Shown in pieces: positions 18,309-18,997 of a stretch of 54,189 nt of DNA. Made by a program: the position numbers and the translations under genes. The stretch is from Escherichia coli (GTDB lineage Bacteria > Pseudomonadota > Gammaproteobacteria > Enterobacterales > Enterobacteriaceae): assembly GCF_003334335.1 (NCBI RefSeq), contig NZ_QOWQ01000032.1, one strand, 5' to 3'. Each line of letters starts with the position of its first letter. Position 1 is the first letter of the stretch. Below the pieces are notes generated by a model. The model was not told where the DNA came from. It saw only the letters and a program-made list of their open reading frames with translations, and searched no databases.

Positions 18309-18746
18309 TTAAACCATCACCAGCGATAACTCTTTGCCAAGCGCCTTTGCCGCGAGCTGGACGGCGTCGATTTTTGTCGCATGATGCAAGTTAAATAGGC
18401 GAGTAATCTCCTGTTTAGGTTTGCCAATTCGCCTGGCTAACTCTTGCTGAGTGATTTCTGACTGTAAAAAAGCATTTAACAGCAATACCTTAGAGGCGAC
18501 GCTCAAAGGTACTTCAATAAAGTGATCGTGACTATTTAATGGCGAAGGTAAAGGGATAAGCTCGTTATCTTCAAAATAAAAATCAAATGCGGTCAGTAAA
18601 GCATCTTTTGCCGCTTCCATCGCTTCAGCGACAGTTTCGCCCTGGGTCAACGCTTCAGGGATATCCACAAAAGAAACCATATAACCGCCTTCCGGCGCGG
18701 GTGTAAGAGTGACGGGATAACGCATAATTTCGACTGTCTCTCGCAT
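18309..18746 (-). CDS. hicB: HicB antitoxin
   Basis: 145-aa ORF immediately downstream of hicA with C-terminal DNA-binding region. The true start may instead be the internal MRYPVTL (18725). Confidence 0.8.
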   Translation of the reverse strand: MRETVEIMRYPVTLTPAPEGGYMVSFVDIPEALTQGETVAEAMEAAKDALLTAFDFYFEDNELIPLPSPLNSHDHFIEVPLSVASKVLLLNAFLQSEITQQELARRIGKPKQEITRLFNLHHATKIDAVQLAAKALGKELSLVMV

Positions 18747-18770
18747 GTCATTAACCTTTTTAATTGGCGA

Positions 18771-18947
18771 TTAACTCAAACCGAGTTGTTTCAGGATTGC
18801 TTTACGCAATGGTTCTTTAATCTCATCGCAGGGGTGACGCGGCATGACACTGCGCCTCCCATGAAACCTGAGTTTCAAATGGTTGCTGCCATTCGCTACA
18901 TCGACGCCCTGAGATTCGAGCCAACGTCTGAACTCGCTTTGTTTCAC
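18771..18947 (-). CDS. hicA: HicA mRNA-interferase toxin (58 aa, GTG start)
   Basis: Manual translation of minus strand: (V/M)KQSEFRRWLESQGVDVANGSNHLKLRFHGRRSVMPRHPCDEIKEPLRKAILKQLGLS then stop. Below the ORF-track cutoff; the track instead reports a spurious plus-strand ORF 18786-18983. Confidence 0.8.
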   Translation of the reverse strand: MKQSEFRRWLESQGVDVANGSNHLKLRFHGRRSVMPRHPCDEIKEPLRKAILKQLGLS

Positions 18948-18979
18948 ATCGCCTCCCTGCCGCTGAGTATATCAACAAA

Positions 18980-18997
18980 GTAAACATTAGTGTTTAC
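18980..18997. promoter_or_regulatory. perfect palindrome upstream of hicA (candidate HicB operator)
   Basis: gtaaaca-ttag-tgtttac, 7-bp arms, located about 33-50 nt upstream of the hicA GTG start. Confidence 0.4.

Follow-up and report, generated by a model that had tools for sequence, protein, structure and literature searches.

The locus raises the question of what a short perfect palindrome upstream of the toxin gene hicA does, and in particular whether it is the site at which the antitoxin HicB controls the hicAB operon. It lies in a stretch of 54,189 nt of Escherichia coli DNA (the window), to whose numbering all positions given below refer.

Identity and layout of the hicAB genes

The open reading frame list placed hicA upstream of hicB, both on the minus strand, and so bore out the toxin-first order proposed in a sequence-only reading of the window. 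The same reading had given hicA 58 amino acids and a GTG start, and the frame at 18771..18947 (minus strand, read from 18947 to 18771) had both. A Shine-Dalgarno sequence, AGGGAGG, was read at 18952..18958 (minus strand), 4 nt before the GTG, and its GGAGG core was kept in orthologues. The HicA protein matched the Pfam family HicA_toxin over residues 5-57 (PF07927; E = 3.7e-7) and the PDB chain 6HPB_A over its full length (E = 1.9e-36). Its translation, VKQSEFRRWLESQGVDVANGSNH..., had a histidine at position 23, the catalytic residue of E. coli HicA (PMC8138530), and His23 was kept in every orthologue with an intact hicA reading frame. Both mRNA interferase activity and neutralisation by HicB are known from the literature for the matching E. 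coli K-12 protein.

The hicB gene occupied 18309..18725 on the minus strand (138 amino acids from the ATG at 18725; open reading frame list, Pfam PF15919 and PF01381, PDB). An upstream in-frame ATG at 18746, with AAGG nearby, gave a 145-amino acid form (18746..18309), and the gap between hicA and hicB was 24 to 45 nt depending on the hicB start. RefSeq (417-nt form) and PDB 6HPB use the 138-amino acid HicB starting at 18725. As the HicB orthologues all started with MRYP, and the Pantoea-group and distant loci had a stop codon just upstream, 18725 was considered the likelier start.

The N-terminus of HicB matched HicB_lk_antitox, a partial RNase H domain (PF15919; E = 1.3e-7, residues 10-74), and its C-terminus matched HTH_3 (PF01381; E = 2.8e-7, residues 95-141 of the 145-amino acid form). 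By these domains HicB would belong to the class of HicB antitoxins whose HTH is C-terminal (Class 3 of Gerdes 2024). An NCBIfam scan of both proteins returned no family, and their identities were settled by Pfam and PDB. HicA and HicB matched the solved E. coli chains of 6HPB, 6HPC and 6U0I over their full length, HicB being identical residue for residue to 6U0I in its 145-amino acid form and matching 6HPB_B (138 amino acids) from end to end. The 6HPB and 6HPC entries are reportedly structures of E. coli HicAB.

The same DNA was annotated as hicA and hicB by RefSeq in thousands of E. coli genomes. A 1.2-kb region was matched in 5417 of 5426 complete E. coli genomes, with best hits at 100% identity and annotated hicA/hicB, and the 71-nt promoter/operator segment was 100% identical to that of K-12 MG1655. 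Downstream, the neighbour was ydcR; on the upstream side lay rlhA and the divergently transcribed yncJ. The locus is E. coli's chromosomal hicAB operon, which encodes a type II toxin-antitoxin system.

Palindrome upstream of hicA

Upstream of hicA, the minus strand read GTAAACA-ctaa-TGTTTAC from 18997 to 18980, which is the perfect 7-4-7 palindrome that had been described there. Its arms (18980-18986 and 18991-18997) were 100% complementary and separated by a 4-nt spacer, and 32 nt lay between it and the hicA GTG, where about 33 had been stated. The centres of the two half-sites were 11 bp apart, or about one helical turn, a spacing fit for a single HTH dimer that reads two major grooves in succession. 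In the 230 nt upstream of hicA, the palindrome was the only inverted repeat whose arms reached 6 nt or more.

By itself the palindrome was statistically not unusual, and its support comes from conservation. With arms required to be 7 nt or longer and loops 8 nt or shorter, the window contained 40 perfect inverted repeats versus 30.4 ± 5.7 in dinucleotide shuffles, and when the 221-nt hicA-yncJ intergenic region was shuffled, a comparable palindrome arose in 9% of cases. The degenerate motif GTAANCANNNNTGNTTAC occurred once in the 54-kb window versus 0.09 occurrences expected.

Two other sequences nearby were noted. A second inverted repeat with 30 nt between its arms, CTTTGTT/AACAAAG (18937-18943 and 18974-18980), was considered as an operator or RNA stem and rejected, because one arm lies within hicA codons, because it is not conserved in the Pantoea group, and because its spacing is unsuited to an HTH dimer. 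The divergent yncJ gene begins with ATGTTTAC (window 19169..19176), identical to the right half-site of the palindrome plus one base; this second GTAAACA (19170-19176, minus strand) is a lone half-site within the start of yncJ and probably a coincidence.

Promoter P2 and assignment of the operator

The hicAB operon is said to have two promoters, of which P2 is repressed by HicB at a site called hicO. Directly downstream of the palindrome, an extended -10 element, TGaTATACT, was read at 18974..18966 (minus strand) and is assigned here to P2. Its TAT core was invariant in the alignment of Escherichia, Citrobacter and Raoultella, with some versions reading TATAAT. The P2 start was predicted at about 18958-18959 (C/A at 18959/18958, 7-8 nt past the -10 element), bordering the Shine-Dalgarno sequence of hicA, and the palindrome spanned about -39 to -22 of P2, where a -35 element would be expected but is missing. 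A generic sigma-70 -35/-10 scan of the intergenic region called neither P2 nor the upstream promoter P1, because both are without a -35 match, and the -10 elements were assigned by hand. For P2 the assigned -10 element and start agree with the published position of the leader, which begins 1 base upstream of the hicA RBS (PMC11878559).

[quoted passage not shown] According to the secondary literature, HicB alone represses P2 at this inverted repeat, an excess of HicA derepresses it, and the P2 transcript yields HicB and not HicA. HicB is listed in RegulonDB as a transcription factor of hicAB. A full-text search of the literature for the 18-mer, on either strand, did not find the operator sequence printed. 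The palindrome was equated with hicO because it is the sole inverted repeat with arms of 6 nt or longer in the 230 nt upstream of hicA, because it is conserved, and because the published operator is an inverted repeat at P2. On these grounds, the hicAB genes of the window were taken to be the K-12 operon with the palindrome at 18980-18997 as its HicB operator, with a probability of roughly 90%. The published hicO almost certainly corresponds to exactly 18980-18997, and the -10 element and start of P2 are probably those given above.

Conservation of the operator across genera

A scan of one genome per species gave 18 loci encoding HicB relatives, 14 of which carried hicA-hicB, with 60-100% HicB identity and the same toxin-first order in all 14. 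The motif GTAAnCA-N4-TGnTTAC was present 49-51 nt before the hicA GTG in all nine non-Escherichia loci with an intact upstream region, at a chance level of 0.04-0.22 sites per shuffled locus (~3.4 kb). The loci bearing it belonged to Escherichia, Citrobacter, Raoultella, Superficieibacter, Pantoea, Serratia and Brenneria. The 4-nt spacer varied (CTAA, TTAA, TTTA, TAAA, AAAA) while the arms were kept. In the alignment of Escherichia, Citrobacter and Raoultella, the operator and the TTT that follows it formed the longest invariant and best-conserved intergenic block. The recognition-helix segment of HicB, KQE(I/V)xR(L/I), was conserved across the same set of loci.

The surroundings of the module were less constant. 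In tblastn searches of the orthologous loci, ydcR adjoined hicB in Escherichia, Citrobacter and Raoultella alone, and yncJ and rlhA turned up only in Escherichia. In five loci hicAB was in a different genomic context, and the site was still present in four of them. Outside Escherichia, Citrobacter and Raoultella, the operator travels with the hicAB module. One locus counts against the operator assignment: in Brenneria roseae (L014) hicA and hicB were intact and the upstream region was replaced from about -45, with the operator motif absent from the whole locus, so that an intact hicAB exists there without the operator.

Position 5 of the arms was degenerate, and its changes were mostly uncompensated in the partner arm, as in GTAATCA/TGTTTAC (L008) and GTAAGCA/TGATTAC (L010, L013); what is conserved is therefore the sequence and not the pairing. 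This bears on a possible role of the palindrome in RNA, as a hairpin in the longer P1 leader affecting its stability or the translation of hicA. The P1 transcript should include the palindrome, and structure prediction for the leader gave a 10-bp hairpin in this region, but the fold of the leader was not better than that of shuffled sequences (z = -0.63; at least as good a fold in 54 of 200 shuffles) and the hairpin left the Shine-Dalgarno sequence unsequestered in the centroid structure. As the hairpin would also be absent altogether from the P2 transcript, a role at the RNA level was judged very improbable.

The palindrome could also be a chance AT-rich inverted repeat without function, with HicB binding elsewhere upstream. 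The frequency of perfect arms of at least 7 nt in the window and in shuffled intergenic regions agrees with this, but chance does not predict that position and arm sequence be kept across seven genera, including loci with unrelated surrounding DNA. The upstream 230 nt offer no second inverted repeat of that arm length, and the operator of the literature is itself an inverted repeat at P2; chance was therefore regarded as extremely improbable.

The CpxR box is GTAAA-N5-GTAAA. A site for another regulator, either of yncJ, which diverges from the same 221-nt intergenic region, or a global factor such as CpxR, whose half-sites the GTAAA on both strands of the palindrome resembles, was hardly credible, since the pentamers are inverted, against direct repeats in the CpxR box, and since the palindrome is 172 nt from the yncJ ATG, whereas its distance to hicA is fixed also in those loci (Citrobacter, Raoultella, Pantoea, Serratia, Brenneria) in which the motif is kept and tblastn finds no yncJ.

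The earlier proposal that the palindrome is a plausible HicB operator was thus supported from two sides, by the footprint across genera and by the published inverted repeat hicO at P2. The EMSA and promoter-fusion experiments that had been suggested with it are essentially already in the literature.

Promoter P1 and candidate CRP-S site

The upstream promoter P1 is described in the secondary literature as dependent on CRP-Sxy and not repressed by HicB, with a transcript that encodes both HicA and HicB. The operator part of the sequence-only reading stood, and the model was incomplete in that the palindrome governs only P2 and the second promoter was missed. A candidate -10 element for P1, TGcTATTTT (a TAnnnT hexamer preceded by TGn), may be placed at 19018..19026 (minus strand); its GCTAT core was conserved in Escherichia, Citrobacter and Raoultella.

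Further upstream, a 5-6-5 inverted repeat, TGGAA-tcttcc-TTCCT (19063..19078, minus strand), is a putative activator or CRP-S site. The pattern TGGAA-N6-TTCC was kept in Escherichia and Citrobacter, with TTGAA in the Raoultella locus, and the candidate P1 -10 element followed the repeat at a constant spacing of 39-40 nt (counted by hand in the aligned sequences), so that the centre of the repeat would be near -60 of the candidate P1. In one Citrobacter locus (L007) the inverted repeat was a perfect GGAATG-tg-CATTCC. In the CRP-S site of sxy, the weak half-site reads TTCCG (PMC6728893). TGGAA-N6-TTCC matches the CRP consensus poorly, and a search of the intergenic region with the CRP-S consensus (TGCGA/TGTGA-N6-TCGCA/TCACA) gave best matches at 7 of 10 positions, none of them convincing; because of this, no position is claimed for a CRP-S site. 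Together, TGGAA-N6-TTCC and TGcTATTTT are offered as a candidate CRP-S site and P1, as a lead and not as a result.

Tandem operators in related modules

A second copy of the operator, GTAAACAnnnnTGTTGAC, preceded the conserved one by exactly 21 bp in loci of Superficieibacter, Pantoea and Serratia (L005, L010, L011, L012), where this distal copy was at -72/-71 from the hicA GTG. Brenneria salicis (L013) had a more degenerate distal copy, GTAAATAAAAATGTTGAT, at the same place. The second copy was thus present in four of the nine non-Escherichia loci, or in five with the degenerate one, and all five were in a different genomic context. In these loci, the distal copy contributes a TTGAC -35 element through its right arm, and a TACTAT -10 element is overlapped by the proximal one. 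The distal copy was not found in E. coli, where it appears to have been lost.

Tentatively, and with somewhat less than even confidence, the ancestral HTH-type hicAB may have had tandem operators 21 bp apart bracketing one sigma-70 promoter. The lineage of Escherichia, Citrobacter and Raoultella would then have lost the distal operator and its -35 element, keeping one operator before the extended -10 element of P2, and P1, independent of HicB and dependent on CRP-Sxy, would have taken over the upstream DNA. If this is true, the logic of two promoters and an antitoxin-only transcript is a lineage-specific rewiring and not a general property of hicAB.

Decay of hicAB modules

One identical 445-bp deletion (window 18548..18991; example L020, with the junction near 510) was common to 1088 of the 5426 complete E. 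coli genomes. At its junction GAGGTAAA is joined to CTTCGCC, the upstream breakpoint being inside the left arm of the operator. The deletion takes out P2, hicA and the N-terminal half of hicB, and the HTH-only remnant of hicB is a RefSeq pseudogene. A 22-bp frameshift deletion in hicA, between two TGCG repeats (window about 18810..18831), was present in 809 of the 5426 genomes; in the example inspected (L019) hicB, P2 and the operator were intact and RefSeq carried the label 'mRNA interferase, frameshifted'. The two deletions together left about 35% of complete E. coli genomes without a working hicA toxin. Both looked recurrent and were clonally shared.

Decay that strikes the toxin first also occurred among the loci from the one-genome-per-species scan: hicA (region about 1275-1455) was a pseudogene in L001, L003 and L007, with hicB and the operator intact. 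It was frameshifted in L001 and L007 and had an in-frame stop in L003, where a deletion of ~11 nt also removes the -10 element of P2. In three Citrobacter loci (L015, L016, L018) only C-terminal fragments of hicB were left, adjoining ydcR.

Proposed regulation

The regulation proposed for the locus would combine what was observed here (the gene identities, the palindrome, its placement relative to the -10 element and the Shine-Dalgarno sequence, and its conservation) with points derived from the literature (HicB binding, derepression by HicA, translation of HicB only from the P2 transcript, and dependence of P1 on CRP-Sxy). HicA, of 58 amino acids, would act as a ribosome-independent mRNA interferase. 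Since the operator is at the -35 position of P2, a HicB dimer bound to it would block RNA polymerase by steric occlusion. When HicA is in excess over HicB, the complex of HicB with DNA would, as in the literature, be destabilised and P2 would fire. Since the P2 transcript is predicted to start at the edge of the hicA Shine-Dalgarno sequence, only HicB would be translated from it, and this HicB would restore the antitoxin excess. P1, dependent on CRP-Sxy and insensitive to HicB, would give a separate transcript that encodes both proteins and produces toxin.

The palindrome re-describes a characterised element of E. coli K-12 and is already known. Publications from 2009 to 2019 cover the locus, the structures, the two promoters and the HicB operator, and the present results carry little weight as a discovery. 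They add independent comparative evidence for the 18-bp palindrome as a functional cis element, related modules in other genera with two such sites 21 bp apart, and the loss of a working hicA in about a third of complete E. coli genomes, with one breakpoint inside the operator.

Comparison with known systems

The closest known system is the hicAB operon of E. coli K-12, with P1 under CRP-S/Sxy control and P2 with hicO. The locus is the same, its HicA and HicB align with the solved chains from end to end, ydcR, yncJ and rlhA flank it in both cases, and with the 71-nt segment 100% identical no difference was detectable.

The HicA3-HicB3 module of Yersinia pestis (Bibi-Triki et al. 2014) is likewise toxin-first, and HicB alone represses it through inverted repeats in the hicA promoter. 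Its operators BS1 and BS2 flank PhicA3, a two-operator layout that resembles the tandem sites of the Pantoea, Serratia and Brenneria orthologues, and its main operator overlaps a core promoter element, as does the operator here. The two systems differ in that HicB3 is a tetrameric ribbon-helix-helix protein, whereas the HicB of the E. coli window has an Xre-type HTH, and in that the Y. pestis operator repeats are of 15 bp and hicA3 and hicB3 are 174 bp apart, against a single 18-bp operator and a gap of 24-45 nt between the genes here.

In Burkholderia pseudomallei HicAB (Winter et al. 2018) HicB likewise binds one palindrome that overlaps the promoter, and an excess of HicA lowers the affinity for the operator. 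The B. pseudomallei HicB has an RHH domain and undergoes a large rearrangement on binding HicA, whereas E. coli HicB binds without major rearrangement.

MqsRA and other toxin-first modules with an Xre-type HTH share the inverse gene order, with the folded antitoxin as repressor and the toxin as derepressor and not corepressor, and they too have extra promoters for expression of the antitoxin only. Their toxin folds and antitoxin-neutralising folds are unrelated to those of HicAB, and their operator sequence is different.
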